Part shown: positions 12,277 to 38,865 of the stretch, one piece after another | Numbering within the stretch: position 1 is the first letter of the stretch | Layout: every line of letters begins with the position of its first letter | Source: an uncultured Gaiellales bacterium | Lineage (GTDB): Bacteria; Actinomycetota; Thermoleophilia; RBG-16-64-13 | Direction of reading: 5' to 3' | Length of the DNA stretch: 64,000 bases | Assembly (NCBI GenBank): GCA_964423425.1 | Contig: CAYRES010000001.1 | Coordinates: 298,191 to 362,190, forward strand | Notes under the pieces: model-generated | What the model was told of the DNA's origin: nothing | Seen by the model: the letters and a program-made list of their open reading frames with translations, nothing else | Databases searched by the model: none | Made by a program: the position numbers and the translations under genes

Positions 12277-12330
12277 CGCGCGGGGGCGCTCGTCACGTCC
12301 GACTTCATCCACGCAGAATCCGGTGCCGAG

Positions 12331-14490
12331 GTGATTCACTATCCCCTCGGCACCTCCGCGACGCGCGAGCCCCTGCCCCCGCTGCCACGTGCAGGTCTTC
12401 CCAAGTGCCCGGGCGCGGCGCTACAAGCGCCCCTCGATTCGCTTCATGGCATCGGGTCGACGAGGGCTGCGCGTCTCCATTGTCTCGGTCTCGACACCGT
12501 GGAAGATCTGCTGCTGTATCTACCCTTCCGCCATGAGACCCCCGCTCGATTGTCGCGTGTCTCAGAACTCAAAGAGGGTGCGGTGTGCACCATCCAGGTG
12601 CGGGTCGGGCCGTGCAGCATACGGCACGGACGTAGGCGTGGTCTGCGTATTCTGGAAGCCCTTGTGGCTGATGACAGTGGGTCGATTGTTGCCGTGTGGT
12701 ACAACCAAGAGTACCTTCGCGAGGCCTTTGCGGGCCGCCCGGAGGTGTTGGTGAGGGGCCGCATGTCCTTCCGGAACCGCACGCCCAGATTCATAGTACA
12801 GCGCCATGAGATCATCGGCCACAAAGAGTCCGGGCCCGGTGGCATACTCGCACTCACCCCCGTCTACCCGGCGACTGCCGACGTGAGTTTGCGCCTGATA
12901 CAAGCCGCTGTACGCTCGGCCCTGCCGGTCGCCCGCGATTTCGTAGATCCCTTACCGGCCCGTCTCCTCGCCGCGCGCTCCTACCCAGGCAAGGCCGAGG
13001 CCATCGCCTGCGCCCACTTCCCGGCTACCGAGTCATCCGCCGTTCGGGCCCGGAAGCGTCTGGCGTTCGAGGAGCTACTCCTGCTTCAAGTGGCACTGCT
13101 CGAGCGCAGGCGGGCGCAGAAGGTGCATCCCGCTGTGGGGCTGGGTTCTCCAGGGCCTCTGTGCCACGCCTTTTTGAAGGAGTTGCCCTATCGCCCGACC
13201 GGGGCTCAAGAGAGGGTCATGGCAGAGATCGACTCCGACCTCAGAGCGCACACACCCATGCTCCGCCTCCTCCAGGGTGACGTAGGGTCGGGAAAGACGC
13301 TCGTGGCGGTGTACGCTCTTCTTCGGGCGCTGGATGCGGGCGGTCAGGGTGTTCTCATGGCACCGACCGAGATCTTGGCCGATCAACATGCCGAGCGCCT
13401 CCGGGAAGCACTCGAGTCTGTCGGGGTTGAGATCTTGACGTTGAAGGGGAGCCTCCCGGTCGGCCACAAGAGGCGCGTGAAGCGAATACTCGGTCGGGGG
13501 CATCCCGCCTTGGTCGTCGGCACCCACGCGCTCATCCAAGAGGATGTGAGTATCCCGAACCTCCGCGTGGTGGTGATCGACGAGCAGCACCGTTTCGGCG
13601 TGGGGCAGCGCGACGCTCTGCTCATGACTGCAGAGAATGAAAGCCGTCCGCACGTGTTGCATATGACGGCGACACCGATACCACGCACCCTCAGCCTCAC
13701 CGTCTACGGCGACCTCGACGTGAGTGTGATCGACGAAATGCCACCCGGCCGACGGCCGGTGAAGACGAAGTGCGTGCGTCCGGAGCAGGAAGGACGGGCC
13801 TGGCGGCTCCTGCGCAGGCGCCTCGACGAGGGCGGACAGGCCTATGTTGTATGCCCCCTCATCGAGGAGAGCCCGGCGCTTCAAAGTGCCGCCGCCACCT
13901 CCACGTACGAAGCGCTCAGCGCGGGTGAGCTGTCCGGTTACGCGGTGCGCCTTCTTCACGGGCGGATGCCGCCCGCAGAGAAGCGTGATGCCATGCAGGC
14001 CTTCGCCCAGGGGAGGGTGCAGGTTCTCGTCTCCACGACAGTGATCGAGGTGGGCGTCGACGTCGCCAATGCCAGCGTCATGGTCATCTTGGGTGCCGGC
14101 CGTTTCGGCCTCTCCCAATTGCATCAGTTGCGCGGCCGGGTGGGCCGGGGGCAAGACGAATCGATGTGCCTGCTCATGGTTGGTGCGAATGACCTCGAGT
14201 CCGGTGATCGCCTCGCCCTGTTCGCCCGCAACCCGGACGGCTTCCAGCTGGCGGAGCTCGACCTCGCCGCCCGCGGGGAGGGGCAACTTTTCGGAGAACG
14301 GCAAACGGGACTCGGCGACCTGAAGATCGCTCGGTTGCGGACCGACCGGGAGTTGCTCGAGGACGCCCGGCGTGAAGCGCTGCACATGTTCGAGGCCGAC
14401 CCCGGCCTCTTGCGCCCCGATCACGCACTTCTGGCCTGGTGTGCGGCGCAACGGTTCGCGGGGGTGGTCGAGCGCTTGGAGCGGGCGTAG
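12331..14490 (+). CDS. recG: ATP-dependent DNA helicase RecG
   Basis: Wedge domain, DVGSGKTLVA Walker A, VIDEQHRFGV and TATPIPRTL motifs. Confidence 0.9.
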   Translation: MIHYPLGTSATREPLPPLPRAGLPKCPGAALQAPLDSLHGIGSTRAARLHCLGLDTVEDLLLYLPFRHETPARLSRVSELKEGAVCTIQVRVGPCSIRHGRRRGLRILEALVADDSGSIVAVWYNQEYLREAFAGRPEVLVRGRMSFRNRTPRFIVQRHEIIGHKESGPGGILALTPVYPATADVSLRLIQAAVRSALPVARDFVDPLPARLLAARSYPGKAEAIACAHFPATESSAVRARKRLAFEELLLLQVALLERRRAQKVHPAVGLGSPGPLCHAFLKELPYRPTGAQERVMAEIDSDLRAHTPMLRLLQGDVGSGKTLVAVYALLRALDAGGQGVLMAPTEILADQHAERLREALESVGVEILTLKGSLPVGHKRRVKRILGRGHPALVVGTHALIQEDVSIPNLRVVVIDEQHRFGVGQRDALLMTAENESRPHVLHMTATPIPRTLSLTVYGDLDVSVIDEMPPGRRPVKTKCVRPEQEGRAWRLLRRRLDEGGQAYVVCPLIEESPALQSAAATSTYEALSAGELSGYAVRLLHGRMPPAEKRDAMQAFAQGRVQVLVSTTVIEVGVDVANASVMVILGAGRFGLSQLHQLRGRVGRGQDESMCLLMVGANDLESGDRLALFARNPDGFQLAELDLAARGEGQLFGERQTGLGDLKIARLRTDRELLEDARREALHMFEADPGLLRPDHALLAWCAAQRFAGVVERLERA

Positions 14491-24435: not shown

Positions 24436-25509
24436 ATGCCCCCGGAGTTCGACGATAGTCCTTCTCCGACACCTGCCGAGTCCGCAAGGCTCGCCGAACC
24501 GGGTGAGGTTGCCGACGACCAAGAGTTCGACGGTTCGCTCCGGCCCCGCTCCCTCTCGGCCTTCGTCGGGCAGCCCGTACTGCGCGAGCAGCTGTCCATC
24601 TTCATCCAGGCGGCGCTCTCGCGAGGGGAGCCTCTCGACCACATACTTCTCGCCGGCCCCCCGGGTCTCGGCAAGACCACTCTCGCCACCATCATCGCTC
24701 TGGAGATGAGGGTGGGTGTCACCACCACCTCGGGGCCTGTGCTCGAACGGAAGGCCGACATGGCGGCCATCCTCACCAACCTGGCCGAGGGAGATGTGCT
24801 GTTCATCGATGAGATCCATCGCCTCAACCGCGCGGTGGAGGAGATCCTCTACCCGGCGATGGAAGACTTCCAGATCGATATCGTCTTGGGCCAGGGTCCG
24901 GCGGCAAGGAGTATCAGGCTCGAGCTTCCGCGCTTCACCCTCATCGGAGCCACCACGCGATCGGGGCTCATCACCACACCGCTTCGGGATCGCTTCGGCT
25001 TCTCCCAGCGGGTGGAGCACTACTCCATCGACGATCTGGCGGCCATTGTTGTCCGCTCGGCGGGCATCCTGGGTGTAGTGATAGACGGCGAGGGAGCACA
25101 CGAGATAGCTCTTCGTTCCCGCGGCACCCCGCGCATAGCAAACCGCCTGCTGAAGCGGGTCCGCGACGTCGCCGAGGTGAGGCACGAAGGCAAGGTGACC
25201 GCCGACGTGGCCCGGTCGGCACTCGATCTCTTCCAAGTCGACGAGAAGGGTCTCGACCGGGTGGACCGGGAGATACTCACCCTCATCCTGGATAAGTTCG
25301 ACGGGGGGCCGGTGGGCCTGTCGACTCTCGCGGTGGCCGTCGGGGAGGAACCCGACACCATCGAGGACGTGTATGAGCCCTATCTGCTTCAGCGTGGCTT
25401 TCTCAAGCGTACGCCACGGGGCCGTGTGCTCACGCGACTGGGATACGAGCATTGCGGAGTGAAGATGCCTTTGGCGGGAGACGGCAAGGCTACCCTTTTC
25501 GAAGCATGA
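24436..25509 (+). CDS. ruvB: Holliday junction branch migration ATPase RuvB
   Basis: AAA+ motifs [13 protein letters not shown] and [12 protein letters not shown] is adjacent to the ruvA stop. Confidence 0.92.
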
Positions 25510-31866: not shown

Positions 31867-32277
31867 ATGGTCGATACCGGGAGCGACACCGGCGCAGGAG
31901 CGCCGCAGGAGACCAGTTCGGGGGTACAGGTCAGAGACCTTCTTGAGAAGGCCTTTCTGCTCGGCGTGGGGGCCGCCACCATCACCTTCGAGAGAGCCGG
32001 GGTGGTGGTGGACGACTTCGTGAAGCGTGGGCATATCTCGGCGGAAGAAGGGCGCAAGCTGGCCGAGGAAGTGAGCGAGCGCAGCCGGGAGGAGATCAGC
32101 CATGTGCTCGGCCGCATGCAGACGGGTGTAGAGTCGACCTATCGCGATGCCGGCCTGGCCACCAAGAGAGACTACGAGGATCTCGACTTCCGCATTCGCC
32201 AACTGGAGCATCGGGTGCGGCTGCTGGAGGAGTCGGCTGATGCGGCGTCGTCAGAGTCCGCGCATACCGCCGTCTGA
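31867..32277 (+). CDS. phasin-like (PHA-granule-associated family) coiled-coil protein
   Basis: Sequence LLEKAFLLGVGAATITFERAGVVVDDFVKRG resembles the phasin TIGR01837-type N-terminus, with a charged coiled-coil tail. Confidence 0.5.
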   Translation: MVDTGSDTGAGAPQETSSGVQVRDLLEKAFLLGVGAATITFERAGVVVDDFVKRGHISAEEGRKLAEEVSERSREEISHVLGRMQTGVESTYRDAGLATKRDYEDLDFRIRQLEHRVRLLEESADAASSESAHTAV

Positions 32278-34072: not shown

Positions 34073-36604
34073 GTGTTCAACCGTTTCGACTGGAAGACGG
34101 CCCCGTGCTCGTTCGACGCGGCTGAGAGTATAGCTGCGGAGTTGCATCTGCCTCCTCTCGTGGGTACCGTGCTGGCCCGCCGGGGCTTCTCCACCGCGGC
34201 TGAGGCCCGGGCCTTCTTGGACGTGAATCCCCACGTTCCCGATCCCTTTCTCCTTGAGGGCATGGAGGCGGCTACGGCCGCACTCGAGCAGGCCCTTGGG
34301 TCCCGTCGGCGTATCGTCGTCCACGGTGACTACGATGCCGACGGTCTCTCGGCGGCTGCGCTCATGGTCTTGGAGTTGCGCCGGTTGGGAGGGCGGTGCG
34401 AGGCGTACATCCCCCAGCGTTTCCGCGAAGGCTACGGCCTGTCCGAGACGGCGGTCCGCGCCATAGCCGCGGAAGGTGATGCTCTCCTCGTCACCGTCGA
34501 CTGCGGCGTCAATTACCCGGCCGAAGTTGCGCTGGCCCTCGAGCTTGGCCTCGAGGTGGTGGTGACCGACCACCACGAGCTCGGCGAGGTCTTGCCTTCA
34601 TGCCCAGTGGTGCACCAACAACTCGGTTCGTATCCAGGCGCCGAACTCTGCGGGGTCGGCGTGGCGCTGAAGACTCTGCACGGGCTTCACGCGCGAATGG
34701 GCACGGCTGAGCGCACACTGCTCCCCGAAGCTCTGCTCGAGTATCTGGACATCGTGGCTCTCGGCACCGTCGCTGATATCGTCCCCCTGCGAGGCGAGAA
34801 CCGCTACTACGTTCAGGAAGGTCTCCGGCGTCTCAGGTGGAGCACACGTCCGGGCCTTCGCACTCTGGCGAGAGTGGCGGGTGGTGCGGCTGCCGGCGAC
34901 GCCTCCAGTATCGGCTTCCGCCTGGCTCCTCGTATCAACGCCGCCGGCCGCATGGGCGACCCGACCAAGGCGCTTGCCCTGCTCCTCACCGACGACGAAA
35001 CGGAAGCCGCCGCGCTGGCTCTCGAGCTCCACGAACTCAACCTGGTACGCCAAGCCACCGAGCGCGACATCATGGCGGGCGCTCAGGCCGACATCGAGGC
35101 CCTGCCCGCTCTCCCTCCTGTCCTGGTGCTTGCCCACGAGCAATGGCACGAAGGTGTGGTCGGCATCGTCGCCTCCCGTTTGGTGGAGCGCTTTCATCGG
35201 CCGGTCGTGCTGCTGGCCGTGAAGGAGGGCCGGGCGCGGGGCTCCGGCCGCAGTATCACCCGGTACGACCTCATGGAGGGGCTCAGGTATTGCAGCGATC
35301 TCCTGACGGTCTTCGGGGGGCACAGCCAGGCCGCCGGCCTTACCCTGAGCGCCGAGAACATCGACCTCTTTGCCGACCGGCTGCGCGATCACGCGGCGAG
35401 CCACCTTCGCCCCGAAGACTTGGTCCCCGCCTTCGCTCCCGATGCGGTGGTGTGCGGCGAGGAGCTCACTCTGGAAACGGCTGAGGGTCTTGCCCGTCTG
35501 GCGCCGTTCGGGAGCGGGAACCCACCGGTCAGGCTCTTGGCTGTGGGGGTCGATCTGAAGGAGCCACAACTCACCCGCACCGGCGACCATCTTCGCTGCA
35601 GCCTCGAGGTGGACGGTATTCGCACCAAGGGCATTGGTTTCCGCCTCGGGCCGGCGCTCGAGAAGCTCGAGGGCGTCACGGGGAGGGTGCATGCAGCCTT
35701 CGAGTTGGGCATCAACGAATGGAACGGCCTTTCCCGCCCCGAGCTCGTGCTCCACAGCCTATATGAGAGCGAGGACAGGGGAGAGGCGGCACTCGGTTGC
35801 ACGCCCCAGTGCCCGTTCCTCGACGAGCCGTCATCCGGGGCTCCATGCGCACATTGCGCCGACCCGTATGCGGGTCTCTACCGCGAATCCTTGCCTACAG
35901 GTGGCGGCGTGCGCAGAGGCGCTCCCTCGTATTCACGCATTGCGCAGATACTCTCGTGCGGTGAGCCCGCAGCGATCATCAGTGCCTCGGTACCGATACG
36001 GCTCCGGGCGGTGGTGGCCGCCCTTCCCCTGGCCAATCTCGGCGTGGGGGGGGTGGACTGCGTGAGCCGCCTGTGCTGGCGCACGCGGTCGCTTGAGTTG
36101 AGGCCCGACGCCCTGCTGTTCGCCGACTGGACGGCGGTACTGCGAAGAAGCGAACTCCTCGAGGGCAAGGCGCACGTGGTGGTGCTCGATCCGCCCTACA
36201 GTCACAGTCATACGCACGTGCTGTCCCAGGCGGCCGGCAGTGGCTCGCGCATCCACTGCCTCTACGGCGAGCGAGAACGGGAGTTCACGGCCAATCTCCT
36301 CAAGTTCATGCTCCACCCTCGCCCGGCCATGGTGGGCGTGTACCGGGCCCTGGCCGAGATCGGCCCTGGTGATGCGTGTGCCCCGGGGGAAGTCCTTCGG
36401 CAGGCGGCTCAAGCCATGTGGGAGAGCCAAGGCTTCCAACCCGCCTTTGACGAGTTGCACCTCGCATGGCGTATCCTTAGAGATATGGGTATAGGCGACG
36501 GTGACAGGCAGAAACAACCAACACGCGAGCCCGAGGATGTGGGCTTGTTCAGAGAGGCGGTCGCATCGTACCAGGAGGCGGTGGGGCTGTGCCGCACGCT
36601 GTAG
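34073..36604 (+). CDS. recJ: single-stranded-DNA-specific exonuclease RecJ with a ~280-aa C-terminal extension
   Basis: DHH domain (VVHGDYDADGLSAAAL, VVTDHHE), DHHA1 (GGHSQAAG) and an OB-like domain extend to about aa 565. The tail then carries CTPQC...CAHC and VVVLDPPY. Confidence 0.85.
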   Translation: MFNRFDWKTAPCSFDAAESIAAELHLPPLVGTVLARRGFSTAAEARAFLDVNPHVPDPFLLEGMEAATAALEQALGSRRRIVVHGDYDADGLSAAALMVLELRRLGGRCEAYIPQRFREGYGLSETAVRAIAAEGDALLVTVDCGVNYPAEVALALELGLEVVVTDHHELGEVLPSCPVVHQQLGSYPGAELCGVGVALKTLHGLHARMGTAERTLLPEALLEYLDIVALGTVADIVPLRGENRYYVQEGLRRLRWSTRPGLRTLARVAGGAAAGDASSIGFRLAPRINAAGRMGDPTKALALLLTDDETEAAALALELHELNLVRQATERDIMAGAQADIEALPALPPVLVLAHEQWHEGVVGIVASRLVERFHRPVVLLAVKEGRARGSGRSITRYDLMEGLRYCSDLLTVFGGHSQAAGLTLSAENIDLFADRLRDHAASHLRPEDLVPAFAPDAVVCGEELTLETAEGLARLAPFGSGNPPVRLLAVGVDLKEPQLTRTGDHLRCSLEVDGIRTKGIGFRLGPALEKLEGVTGRVHAAFELGINEWNGLSRPELVLHSLYESEDRGEAALGCTPQCPFLDEPSSGAPCAHCADPYAGLYRESLPTGGGVRRGAPSYSRIAQILSCGEPAAIISASVPIRLRAVVAALPLANLGVGGVDCVSRLCWRTRSLELRPDALLFADWTAVLRRSELLEGKAHVVVLDPPYSHSHTHVLSQAAGSGSRIHCLYGEREREFTANLLKFMLHPRPAMVGVYRALAEIGPGDACAPGEVLRQAAQAMWESQGFQPAFDELHLAWRILRDMGIGDGDRQKQPTREPEDVGLFREAVASYQEAVGLCRTL

Positions 36605-36636
36605 ACAAGGGGTCGAAGAGGCAAGTGGAAGAACAG

Positions 36637-38865
36637 ATGGCAGGCGAGGGTGAGGCGCCTGCCAGTCAGGAGCTGAACGCCGAAGCACGCGGACTGCTCG
36701 ACGATCTGTTCCGCGCCATTGTGCGGTACAACCCCAACTTCGACCGCGACCTGATTCAGCGCTCCTTCGAGTTGGCCGTCTATCAGCACCGCGAACAGCG
36801 CCGTGCGAGCGGCCAATACTACATCTACCACCCGGCTGGAACAGCCCGCGTCTGTGCCGACCTGAGGCTTGATTCGGCCACCATCGCAGCGGCATTGCTG
36901 CACGACGTCGTCGAGGACACCGACATGTCCATCGACGTCATCAGTGAGCAGTTCGGTGACGAGGTGGCCCTCCTGGTCGACGGTGTGACCAAGCTTGGCC
37001 AGATGTCCTTCAAGAGCGTTGAGGAGGAACAGGCCGAGAACTATCGCAAGATGATCCTCGCGATGGCCAAGGACATCCGCGTGGTCCTCATCAAGTTGGC
37101 CGACCGGTTGCACAACATGCGCACGCTCTCCTACTTGGGCAAAGAGAAGCAGATCGAGAAGGCGAAGGAGACACTCGAGATCTACGCCCCACTGGCGCAT
37201 CGGCTCGGTATCGAATCCATTCGCTGGGAGTTGGAAGACCTGGCCTTCCAGACCCTCCACCCGCGGAAGTATCAAGAGATACAGCACATGGTGGCGCAGC
37301 GCCGCGTTGATCGCGAGAGGTACATCGAGGATGCCGCCGCCCAGCTCCGAGCCGAACTGAACAGGCTTCACATCGATGCAGATATCTCCGGCCGGGCGAA
37401 GCACTTCTATTCCATCTACGACAAGATGGTGCGCCGGGGCAAGGAGTTCAACGAGATATACGATCTCACCGCCCTAAGAGCGATAGTCAGCTCCGTACGT
37501 GACTGCTACGCCACCCTGGGAGTCATTCACTCCATGTGGAAGCCCGTGCCGGGCCGCTTCAAAGACTACATCGCCATGCCCAAGTTCAATATGTACCAGT
37601 CTCTTCACACGACCGTCATCGGGCCGCAGGGCAAGCCGCTCGAGATACAGGTGCGCACGCGCGAGATGCACGAGACGGCTGAGTACGGCATCGCCGCCCA
37701 CTGGATCTACAAGGAGAAGGCCGCCGACGGGAGCAGGGGTGAGGGCAGTCTCGACAAGCTCCAGTGGCTGCGCCAGATAATCGACTGGCAATCAGATACC
37801 GCCGACGCCTCTGAGTTCATGGAATCGCTCCGGGTGGATCTGTTCCAAGACGAGGTCTATGTGTTCACCCCCAAAGGAGAGGTGAGGAGCCTCCCCGCGG
37901 GCTCCACGCCGGTCGATTTCGCCTACGCCATTCACACCGATGTGGGGCACCGCTGTGTGGGTGCCCGTGTGAACGGCCGTATCGTGCCGCTCACCTATCG
38001 TCTGCAATCGGGCGACATCGTCGAGATACTCACCTCCAAGACACCCCAGGGGCCGTCTCGCGACTGGCTCACCTTTGTGAAGAGCACTTCGGCCCGTAAC
38101 CGCATCCGCCAGTGGTTCAAGAGAGAACGCCGGGAGGACTCCCAGCATCAAGGCAAAGATGCCCTACTCGAATCACTCCGCAAACATGGCTTGCCTGCCC
38201 AGAAGCTCATCAATTCCGAGACTCTCAACGATGTCATCAAAGACATGGGTTTCCAGAAGCGTGATGACTTCTTCGTGAGCATAGGCACCGGCAAGACGCC
38301 CGCGCAGCAGGTCATCGGCAAGCTCATGCCCCGTTTGGACAAGAGCTTCGCCGAGATGAAGCCAGACCTGGTGCCTGCCTTCCAGAAGCGTCCCCGGCCG
38401 CACCCCGCCAAAGAGGGCATGGGGGTGAGAGTAGAGGGCATGGACGATGTGGCGGTGAGGGTTCCACAGTGCTGCCGGCCGGTACCGGGAGACGATGTCG
38501 TCGGATACATCTCTTTGGGCCGGGGTGTCACCATTCACCGGCGCGATTGTCCTAACGTGAAGGCGCTTGAGAAGAACCCCGAGCGCTTCGTGCCGGTCAG
38601 CTGGGATATGTCGAGCGTGGGGCCGTTCCTGGTGGAGATCATGATCGAGGCTCATGATCGCCAGCACCTCCTCGAAGACATCAGCCGGGCGCTCAGTGAA
38701 TGCAACGTCAACATCATGGCTGCCACCATTCAGACCACAGGCGACAACCAGGTGAAGGACCGCTTTGTCTTCGAAGTGCCCGAGATCGACTACCTCGACT
38801 CCGTTCTGCAGCGCATACGCCGCATCGACACGGTATACGACGCCTATCGCATCACCCCCAACTGA
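36637..38865 (+). CDS. relA: bifunctional (p)ppGpp synthetase/hydrolase
   Basis: HD hydrolase (HDVVEDT), synthetase (RAKHFYSIYDKM), TGS and ACT domains. ATG at 36637 is preferred over the overlapping 36589. Confidence 0.9.
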   Translation: MAGEGEAPASQELNAEARGLLDDLFRAIVRYNPNFDRDLIQRSFELAVYQHREQRRASGQYYIYHPAGTARVCADLRLDSATIAAALLHDVVEDTDMSIDVISEQFGDEVALLVDGVTKLGQMSFKSVEEEQAENYRKMILAMAKDIRVVLIKLADRLHNMRTLSYLGKEKQIEKAKETLEIYAPLAHRLGIESIRWELEDLAFQTLHPRKYQEIQHMVAQRRVDRERYIEDAAAQLRAELNRLHIDADISGRAKHFYSIYDKMVRRGKEFNEIYDLTALRAIVSSVRDCYATLGVIHSMWKPVPGRFKDYIAMPKFNMYQSLHTTVIGPQGKPLEIQVRTREMHETAEYGIAAHWIYKEKAADGSRGEGSLDKLQWLRQIIDWQSDTADASEFMESLRVDLFQDEVYVFTPKGEVRSLPAGSTPVDFAYAIHTDVGHRCVGARVNGRIVPLTYRLQSGDIVEILTSKTPQGPSRDWLTFVKSTSARNRIRQWFKRERREDSQHQGKDALLESLRKHGLPAQKLINSETLNDVIKDMGFQKRDDFFVSIGTGKTPAQQVIGKLMPRLDKSFAEMKPDLVPAFQKRPRPHPAKEGMGVRVEGMDDVAVRVPQCCRPVPGDDVVGYISLGRGVTIHRRDCPNVKALEKNPERFVPVSWDMSSVGPFLVEIMIEAHDRQHLLEDISRALSECNVNIMAATIQTTGDNQVKDRFVFEVPEIDYLDSVLQRIRRIDTVYDAYRITPN

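Follow-up and report, generated by a model that had tools for sequence, protein, structure and literature searches.

A C-terminal extension of RecJ in Thermoleophilia is likely a strongly diverged relative of the Firmicutes RecJ C-terminal domain

The RecJ protein encoded in a 64,000-nucleotide stretch of DNA from an uncultured Gaiellales bacterium (the window) carries a 278-residue C-terminal tail that is likely a RecJ accessory domain of the PF10141 (ssDNA-exonuc_C) family, in an actinobacterial (Thermoleophilia-type) version that has diverged strongly; by analogy, it would function as a non-catalytic docking or DNA-binding module. The architecture, conservation, restriction to RecJ, fold and remote homology of the tail were established directly by computation. 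The initial annotation had suggested a lineage-specific regulatory or zinc domain. Its idea of an accessory domain holds in spirit, but the lineage-specific origin does not, because a chain of profile-profile comparisons identified the tail as a remote relative of PF10141.

The recJ ORF (34073..36604, forward strand, as are all features below; GTG start, stop codon at 36602-36604) is uninterrupted and encodes 843 aa. The NCBIfam equivalog model TIGR00644 matched aa 28-561 with 463.7 bits, above its cutoff of 396.9, and the three core domains of bacterial RecJ were present in order: the DHH catalytic domain (aa 80-232, 34310..34768; Pfam PF01368, E 3.1e-18), DHHA1 (aa 349-439, 35117..35389; PF02272, E 6e-14) and the OB-fold domain RecJ_OB (aa 457-560, 35441..35752; PF17768, E 2.8e-17), with which the canonical core ends. 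The catalytic motifs G85-D86-Y87-D88-x-D90-G91, D166-H167-H168 and G415-G416-H417 were invariant among 60 homologues. RecJ chains in the PDB aligned to the window RecJ only up to aa 561-568, the alignment with 5f54 stopping at aa 561. The tail (aa 566-843, 35768-36601) begins five residues past RecJ_OB, in agreement with the extension of about 280 residues first described behind a DHH/DHHA1/OB core, the end of which Pfam and TIGR00644 placed at about aa 561. A relA/spoT homologue (36637..38865; HD_4, RelA_SpoT, TGS and ACT domains) follows as genomic context outside the feature. This adjacency had been noted correctly, but the reported distance of 30 nt was inexact: the ATG at 36637 lies 32 nt past the recJ stop codon, whereas the GTG at 36589 chosen by gene callers gives a 16-nt overlap.

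The tail opens with an acidic linker, continues with an alpha/beta subdomain of five strands that lacks ATP-binding motifs, and closes with a helical subdomain. The Cys-rich linker (aa 566-610, 35768..35902; pI 4.2) contains Cys pair A (C576/C580) in the motif CTPQC (aa 576-580, 35798-35812) and Cys pair B (C592/C595) in CAHC (aa 592-595, 35846-35857). Both motifs were present as originally reported, but not with the x15 spacing given for them, since C576-x3-C580 and C592-x2-C595 lie 11 residues apart. The alpha/beta subdomain (aa 611-732, 35903..36268; pI 9.5) opens with an RDLRD-type motif and has five strands in the structure model (633-637, 661-664, 681-685, 701-704 and 726-729). Cys pair C (C663 and C668, 36059..36076), which co-occurs with pair A, lies within and just past strand 2, and the tetrapeptide DPPY (D706-P-P-Y709, 36188..36199) forms the turn from strand 4 to the next helix. 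The helical subdomain (aa 733-843, 36269..36601) contains HPR 748-750, YR 757-758 and C840 and matches the C-terminal half of PF10141; Leuconostoc RecJ retains only this half. The tail was modeled with a pLDDT of 90.1 and a pTM of 0.89, and full-length RecJ with a pLDDT of 93.0 and a pTM of 0.91; linker residues 570-600 had pLDDT values of 82-92 in the full-length model.

A fusion of recJ to a separate downstream gene by an assembly or indel error would also yield a long ORF. Split recJ ORFs are known from some unrelated Firmicutes assemblies, but nothing in the lineage of the window supports such an artefact. The same 843-aa protein, in a single frame and identical in sequence, was found on 22 contigs, which came from four or more assemblies (ENA ERZ27252308/282/294 and Logan SRR10872663), several of them independent, which upholds the earlier reading of a continuous ORF with no frameshift. 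More than 100 homologues from Thermoleophilia and Actinobacteria shared the ~840-aa architecture at 43-70% identity, and 120 listed homologues were 700-899 aa long, mostly with about 100% query coverage. The comparison of RecJ length and tail across relatives that the initial annotation had called for thus gave no stop codon near aa 570 with a separate downstream ORF. The GC contents at codon positions 1/2/3 were alike in tail (0.70/0.53/0.76) and core (0.75/0.47/0.78). Because of the 22 identical copies and the homologues that keep the fusion, the artefact reading is already refuted, and we give it a negligible probability. Nor was the tail merely compositional or of low complexity, an outcome that had been named as fatal to a domain: its sequence entropy was 3.99 bits, compared with 3.89 bits in the core.

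Among the 120 homologues, W686, H701, P707, P708, H728, Y731, G732, R736, H748-P749-R750, M753 and C840 were invariant or nearly so; judged from the sequences, the tail is under strong purifying selection. It was also confined to RecJ. Run exhaustively against 1.84 billion representatives, phmmer returned just 70 matches, RecJ domains lay upstream of the tail in all 10 matches scanned with Pfam, and several of the 15 shorter matches that we read started within the OB domain or within the tail, as expected of fragments; these short tail-only matches also argue against a separate gene. All tail homologues whose domains were examined were RecJ or RecJ fragments. A scan of contigs with the single protein recovered no tail and no more than seven distant RecJ cores (31-37% identity).

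The relationship with PF10141 was reached through a second actinobacterial clade. By hhalign, the window clade matched this second clade with a probability of 99.85% (E 1.4e-30), and the second clade matched Firmicutes RecJ C-terminal domains (CTDs) with a probability of 87.7% (E 3.4e-6) over 129 columns, the Firmicutes alignment consisting of three sequences only. These CTDs were obtained from the DNA around RecJ fragments (355 aa or shorter) that matched the N-terminal 203 aa of S. aureus RecJ, and their matches to PF10141 were full-length (E 1e-57 to 1e-72). The second clade scored 46.5 against Firmicutes, a value attained by none of 200 column shuffles (mean 11.0, sd 1.8, maximum 17.6); the reversed alignment scored 17.2. 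The direct comparison of the window clade with Firmicutes was weak (5.8%, E 0.0066, 42 columns), and its register was identical to that of the merged profile comparison.

The tail also resembles the PF10141 domain of the B. subtilis type, which is best known from the RecJ of Bacillus and Staphylococcus and has been solved for S. aureus RecJ (PDB 8y30, residues ~563-756), in its place immediately behind RecJ_OB within RecJ and in its similar length (~200-230 aa). The two share motifs in the same order: an (F/R)DLR(G/D) opening (FDLRG/RDLRD), a hydrophobic strand followed by D-P/L-P (hhhhDPP), P.R..F..Y..L, LG(F/L)V and S..Y. The DPP of the tail aligned with the DPP or DLP of PF10141 domains, and the neighborhood secDF...recJ...relA is common to S. 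aureus and the window. The two also differ. The Pfam model (gathering score 26.4 bits) is not sensitive enough to find the tail: at E ≤ 10 it still missed all 28 window-clade tails and all 10 tails of the second clade. Searching PDB sequences with the tail and with both actinobacterial clade profiles left 8y30 unmatched and gave insignificant matches only (NF-YA, a bromodomain protein and a GntR winged helix). Compared with PF10141, the tail has an additional strand and loop with C663/C668 plus the Cys-rich linker, the window-clade invariants W686, H701, H728, E735, HPR 748-750 and C840, and a shortened beta-hairpin after the LG motif.

The motif DPPY had been taken as a possible sign of a fused second enzyme, an amino-methyltransferase (N6-adenine or N4-cytosine) with DPPY as its motif IV. 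Like motif IV, (D/N/S)PP(Y/F/W), the tetrapeptide follows a beta strand. This strand is the fourth in an alpha/beta domain, where motif IV is topologically expected; position 709 is Y or F in 111 of 120 close homologues, and 3 of 28 family members gave sub-threshold matches to PF10237 (best E 0.085). Against this, a scan of the tail with Pfam and NCBIfam HMMs gave no family at threshold, and the glycine-rich motif I (SAM loop) expected after strand 1 was not conserved among the 120 homologues, whose consensus there was C/A-S-V-P. The tail model has five strands rather than the seven-stranded sheet of the class I methyltransferase fold, and the domain was never observed outside RecJ. Furthermore, the aromatic residue is limited to the window clade. 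In the second actinobacterial clade and Firmicutes, DPP is followed by the non-aromatic P, L, A, C, V, S or T, with variants such as DPPP, DPPL, DPPA, DLPPS and DLPTS, and the family-wide core of the motif is D-x-P. The methyltransferase reading is strongly disfavored by the present computations, and we regard it as very improbable. DPP would instead be a structural feature that marks the family as a whole, at the turn from strand 4 to the helix.

The best fold matches of the alpha/beta subdomain model, which resembles a RecA-like lobe, were helicase lobes (SF2/RecA-like lobes of XPB HD1 2fz4; the C-terminal lobes of Vasa, DDX3, Hera and Dbp5; Snf2-type lobe 2; and SecA NBD2). This likeness, together with the failure of the PF10141 model and of PDB sequence searches to find the tail, would fit a domain of separate, lineage-specific origin whose likeness to PF10141 is convergent or spurious. 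Actinobacterial RecJ could, for instance, have captured an SF2-helicase lobe that then degenerated. Unlike SF2 helicases, however, the tail has a single lobe, and the likeness is at the fold level only: Walker A, DExx and motif VI/arginine finger were not conserved in the tail family, Pfam found no Helicase_C match in it, and hhalign of the window clade against the RecG and PriA lobes of the window itself gave probabilities below 1%. The match of the second clade to Firmicutes, far above its shuffled and reversed controls, and the agreement with PF10141 in motif order, register, domain length and post-OB position also argue against a captured lobe, which we consider unlikely. The two readings can both hold if the fold of PF10141 is itself that of a helicase lobe, and the present fold matches suggest that the alpha/beta half of PF10141-type domains is helicase-lobe-like.

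The cysteines bear on a further alternative. A conserved Cys4 tetrad of C576/C580 and C592/C595, as initially proposed, was not borne out, as just 42 of 117 homologues had it complete; pair B was counted in the same number (~36%), and pair A was present in ~75%. Pair A instead co-occurred with C663/C668 (both in 86 homologues, neither in 23, mixed in 8; Fisher p = 9e-17, uncorrected for phylogeny). The tetrad 576, 580, 663 and 668 was thus complete in 86 of 117 homologues, and its cysteines were lost together; the segment with C663/C668 is deleted in several second-clade members and in Firmicutes. The conserved Cys unit is therefore probably C576/C580 plus C663/C668. As a putative metal site, these four would probably pin the linker to the alpha/beta subdomain in the window clade, with C592 and C595 as an optional addition.

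Other end-resection nucleases, namely AddB, Dna2 and Cas4, are known to contain Fe-S staples. With this precedent, the six cysteines in three pairs, their non-random co-occurrence and the C-x-P-x-C-P signature of the first pair would suit an Fe-S cluster that renders resection redox-sensitive; and H701, D706, H728, E735 and R750 could form a ligand or catalytic site instead of a docking surface, several His, Asp, Glu and Arg residues being invariant in the actinobacterial clades alone. However, roughly one in four close homologues has no Cys pairs, the C663/C668 segment is deleted throughout entire sub-clades, no hydrolase matched in fold or sequence, the polar invariants are not retained in Firmicutes CTDs, and the sequence does not reveal whether Zn or Fe is bound. 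A cofactor-bearing tail, or one with a second active or ligand-sensing site, is thus doubtful. A more specific form of it has a slightly smaller chance still of being correct: the six-Cys cluster (C576, C580, C592, C595, C663 and C668), gained in the Thermoleophilia-type clade, would form an Fe-S or binuclear zinc center that staples the linker to the helicase-lobe-like subdomain and, with the clade-invariant H701/D706/H728/E735/R750 surface, would make 5'-end resection responsive to redox state or a small ligand. If true, this control of resection would be a regulatory layer undescribed for any RecJ.

For the PF10141-type accessory domain that we favor, a non-catalytic docking or DNA-binding role is inferred by analogy with other RecJ CTDs. 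The CTD of D. radiodurans RecJ binds the SSB C-terminus and HerA and boosts nuclease activity (PMC4846377, PMC4663267), and B. subtilis RecJ was the most abundant among the SSB-C-terminus partners recovered (PMC3000357). The S. aureus RecJ CTD was reported to lack a Deinococcus-type SSB pocket (PMC11442139). The Deinococcus-Thermus CTD (domain IV; PDB 5f54/5f56, 2zxo), described as confined to Deinococcus-Thermus (PMC4663267), is likewise an extra post-OB domain of bacterial RecJ, with a demonstrated accessory role. In that domain, three helices form the pocket for the SSB C-terminus, whereas the tail is alpha/beta plus helical and about twice as large; no RecJ matched the tail when the PDB was searched by phmmer and by profile. 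In the searchable literature we found no experiment on the function of any PF10141-type domain and no paper for 8Y30, SaRecJ or ssDNA-exonuc_C. By the same analogy, the module would act as a brace for the OB fold and as a contact surface for SSB, a partner helicase or DNA, which would make the 5'-3' exonuclease core efficient on SSB-coated or duplex-flanked ends.

The tail is largely ordinary, an accessory domain of the kind expected in a housekeeping repair nuclease. Its assignment removes a tempting misannotation, the RecJ-methyltransferase fusion inferred from DPPY. With it, PF10141 likely reaches into a second phylum, and D-x-P after strand 4 emerges as a family-wide landmark, in a module that current Pfam and NCBIfam models fail to recognize in actinobacteria. 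The clade-specific Cys cluster is a candidate for metal binding, and the conserved residues of the tail can be used as targets for mutagenesis. In Thermoleophilia and related Actinobacteria, the long RecJ would end in a module of the type that Firmicutes RecJ also has at its C-terminus.

The recJ ORF was read without interruption from 34073 to 36604 on the forward strand (843 aa; stop codon, 36602-36604). Pfam recognised three domains, DHH (aa 80-232), DHHA1 (aa 349-439) and RecJ_OB (aa 457-560); TIGR00644, the RecJ equivalog of NCBIfam, spanned aa 28-561 with 463.7 bits (cutoff, 396.9), and alignments with the solved RecJ structures 8y30, 5f54, 2zxo and 1ir6 stopped at aa 561-568. Beyond this core lay a tail of 278 residues (aa 566-843; nt 35768-36601, forward strand) that matched nothing in Pfam, NCBIfam or the PDB sequences. 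The initial annotation had recognized the tail and correctly placed CTPQC (aa 576-580), CAHC (aa 592-595) and DPPY (aa 706-709) in it, although the two Cys pairs are separated by 11 residues and not by 15. The sequence entropy and codon-position GC of the tail were the same as those of the core, indicating that it is not a compositional feature only.

The recJ-tail fusion is real. Twenty-two contigs, drawn from several independent assemblies (ENA ERZ27252308, ERZ27252282 and ERZ27252294; Logan SRR10872663), encoded the identical 843-aa product, and a full-protein query listed 120 homologues of 700-899 aa, most with ~100% query coverage and 43-70% identity; the few that were named came from Thermoleophilia or Actinobacteria MAGs. 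Therefore, a stop codon near aa 570 in relatives, which had been considered as a sign of an artefact, is contradicted by these full-length products. The order secD-secF-(136 aa)-ubiB-recJ-relA-MBL-hisS was kept on a 3.56-Mb contig whose RecJ was 45% identical. The 136-aa ORF between secF and ubiB (31867-32277, forward strand; no Pfam match on record) had a counterpart of the same size and position at 1778-2188 of locus L012, in a genome whose RecJ was only 45% identical. In a second, remoter actinobacterial clade, the RecJ P0155 (886 aa; locus L013, 638-3298) lay immediately upstream of relA, and thus the recJ-relA linkage spans the clades. The relA start is ambiguous within 36589-36640: the ATG at 36637 lies 32 nt past the recJ stop, whereas the GTG at 36589 chosen by gene callers gives a 16-nt overlap with the recJ 3' end. 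Three long reverse-strand ORFs over recJ and relA (34598-35755, 35933-36895 and 36409-37404; 385, 320 and 331 aa) were treated as non-genes, their Arg/Pro/Ala-rich products being as expected of non-coding frames at 65-68% GC.

Across the 120 homologues, the tail varied over its first ~45 residues and was conserved from aa ~611 (consensus RDLRD) to its C-terminus, with W686, H701, D706-P707-P708-(Y/F)709, H713, H728, Y731-G732, R736, H748-P749-R750, M753, Y757-R758 and C840 invariant or nearly so. An exhaustive phmmer search with the tail over 1.84 billion cluster representatives returned only 70 proteins. RecJ_OB and/or DHHA1 preceded the tail in all 10 matches scanned with Pfam, and several of the shorter matches that were read started within the OB domain or the tail, as fragments would. 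No tail domain was found outside RecJ among the homologues examined, and this speaks against a mobile enzymatic module.

The tail was modelled with confidence by AlphaFold2 from 28 diverse tails (pLDDT 90.1, pTM 0.89); the model comprised a linker ordered around the Cys residues (aa 566-610), an alpha/beta subdomain with five strands (633-637, 661-664, 681-685, 701-704 and 726-729) and a helical subdomain (aa 733-843). The full-length model was likewise confident and weak only at aa ~605-620 (pLDDT 93.0, pTM 0.91), and its high pTM is compatible with a fixed position of the tail relative to the core. DPPY fell after strand 4 and before the following helix. This motif had been likened to motif IV of amino-methyltransferases, a fused second enzymatic module being one of two readings offered; of the features that define such an enzyme, only the tetrapeptide is there, and the methyltransferase reading is wrong. 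The tail had neither motif I nor a class I methyltransferase fold, the aromatic residue after DPP was lost beyond the closest clade, and PF10237 matched only below threshold, in 3 of 28 family members (best E 0.085). In the second clade, which was found by the tail phmmer search and matched the profile of window-clade tails at E 1e-11 to 1e-38, the DPP region read, for example, HVVLVDPPP, LVALDPPL, LAALDPPA or VLALDPPC. The likeness to helicase lobes is one of fold only, since none of the Walker A, DExx and arginine-finger motifs was conserved in the tail, Helicase_C did not match it, and hhalign against the lobes of the window's own RecG and PriA was null. The window encodes PriA (304-2595; 3'BD, Zn ribbon and PriA_C), RecG (12277-14487; wedge, DEAD and Helicase_C) and a RuvB-like ORF (24436-25506) assigned at the motif level by GLGKT and DEIH.

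The tail is probably, judging from shared landmarks and profile comparisons, a remote member of PF10141 (ssDNA-exonuc_C), the C-terminal domain (CTD) family of Firmicutes RecJ, and one that Pfam's own model missed. Firmicutes RecJ genes were reached through split-ORF fragments returned by the protein search, and their CTDs matched PF10141 end to end (E 1e-57 to 1e-72); that of S. aureus belongs to the protein crystallised as 8y30. In S. aureus GCA_902714925.1, recJ was broken into at least two ORFs (locus L014, 4001-5041 and 5107-6273), as it was in four further Firmicutes contigs, probably through frameshift errors or pseudogenization. The CTDs showed the same landmarks as the window tail in the same order: an opening W/Q-x-L-F-D-L-R-G corresponding to RDLRD (611-615), AYIVLLDPPPS, HVVLVDLPPS or KVVLRDLPTS to HVVVLDPPY, and P-x-R-D-x-F-K-x-Y-Y-x-L to HPR..M..YRAL, with F-x-x-L-G-F-V and D-L-x-x-S-x-x-Y-Q also shared near the end. 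In profile-profile alignments, window-clade tails matched the second clade (99.85%, E 1.4e-30, 223 columns), which in turn matched three Firmicutes CTDs with DPP on DPP (87.7%, E 3.4e-6, 129 columns). The latter score was 46.5, compared with 11.0 ± 1.8 (maximum 17.6) for 200 column-shuffled Firmicutes alignments and 17.2 for a reversed one. Window-clade tails against Firmicutes CTDs directly scored 25.7 (E 0.0066), and both actinobacterial clades merged scored 35.7 (E 1.7e-4), in the same register. The proposal of a regulatory or zinc domain is thus roughly right, although the tail probably belongs to a family already known, from which it has diverged.

The three clades had in common only the hydrophobic strand with D-x-P, some hydrophobic positions and the tyrosine of YR, which suggests that DPP is a structural turn from strand into helix. 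The actinobacterial clades' own invariants W686, H701, H728, E735 and R750 may mark a functional surface. The segment with strand 2 and C663/C668 was absent from Firmicutes and had been lost from several proteins of the second clade. The Leuconostoc litchii RecJ (locus L016, 3891-4967) matched only PF10141 positions 96-181, the helical half, indicating that the alpha/beta half with DPP is dispensable in some lineages. The second-clade profile at about aa 795-830 of the window RecJ (LRVLEELGL plus a hairpin) gave a non-significant match to the winged helix of a GntR regulator (7wjg_A; E 0.86), a hint that the C-terminal subdomain may hold a winged-helix-like element, shorter in the window clade.

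The zinc-finger-like tetrad C576/C580/C592/C595 is present, but it is not a conserved unit: of 117 near-full-length homologues, only 42 have all four residues. The pairs 576/580 and 663/668 occurred together in 86 of these, were both missing in 23 and were mixed in 8 (Fisher p = 9e-17, with phylogeny ignored), and 592/595 was seen only alongside both. Because of this co-occurrence and dependence, 576/580/663/668 is the more parsimonious candidate site for a metal, either Zn or an Fe-S cluster, and 592/595 would be an optional addition to it.

The C-terminal extensions of RecJ that have been characterised to date are accessory. In Deinococcus, the CTD, which is unrelated to the tail, binds HerA and the C-terminus of SSB, and RecJ without it shows less DNA binding and nuclease activity (PMC4846377, PMC4663267). 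B. subtilis RecJ, which bears PF10141, was the most abundant recovered partner of SSB, and its fork localisation requires the SSB C-terminus (PMC3000357). For S. aureus, the CTD is reported to be unlike that of Deinococcus and to be without its SSB pocket (PMC11442139). By analogy with these extensions, the tail might be a module without catalysis of its own, bracing the OB fold and offering a surface for docking or for nucleic-acid binding, a role to which we give about even chances. The alpha/beta subdomain is basic (pI 9.5), and the putative metal site would pin the linker to it. The tail, then, probably belongs to a known family of RecJ domains, in a diverged form whose Cys cluster is specific to its clade, and the outcome is a useful correction of annotation.
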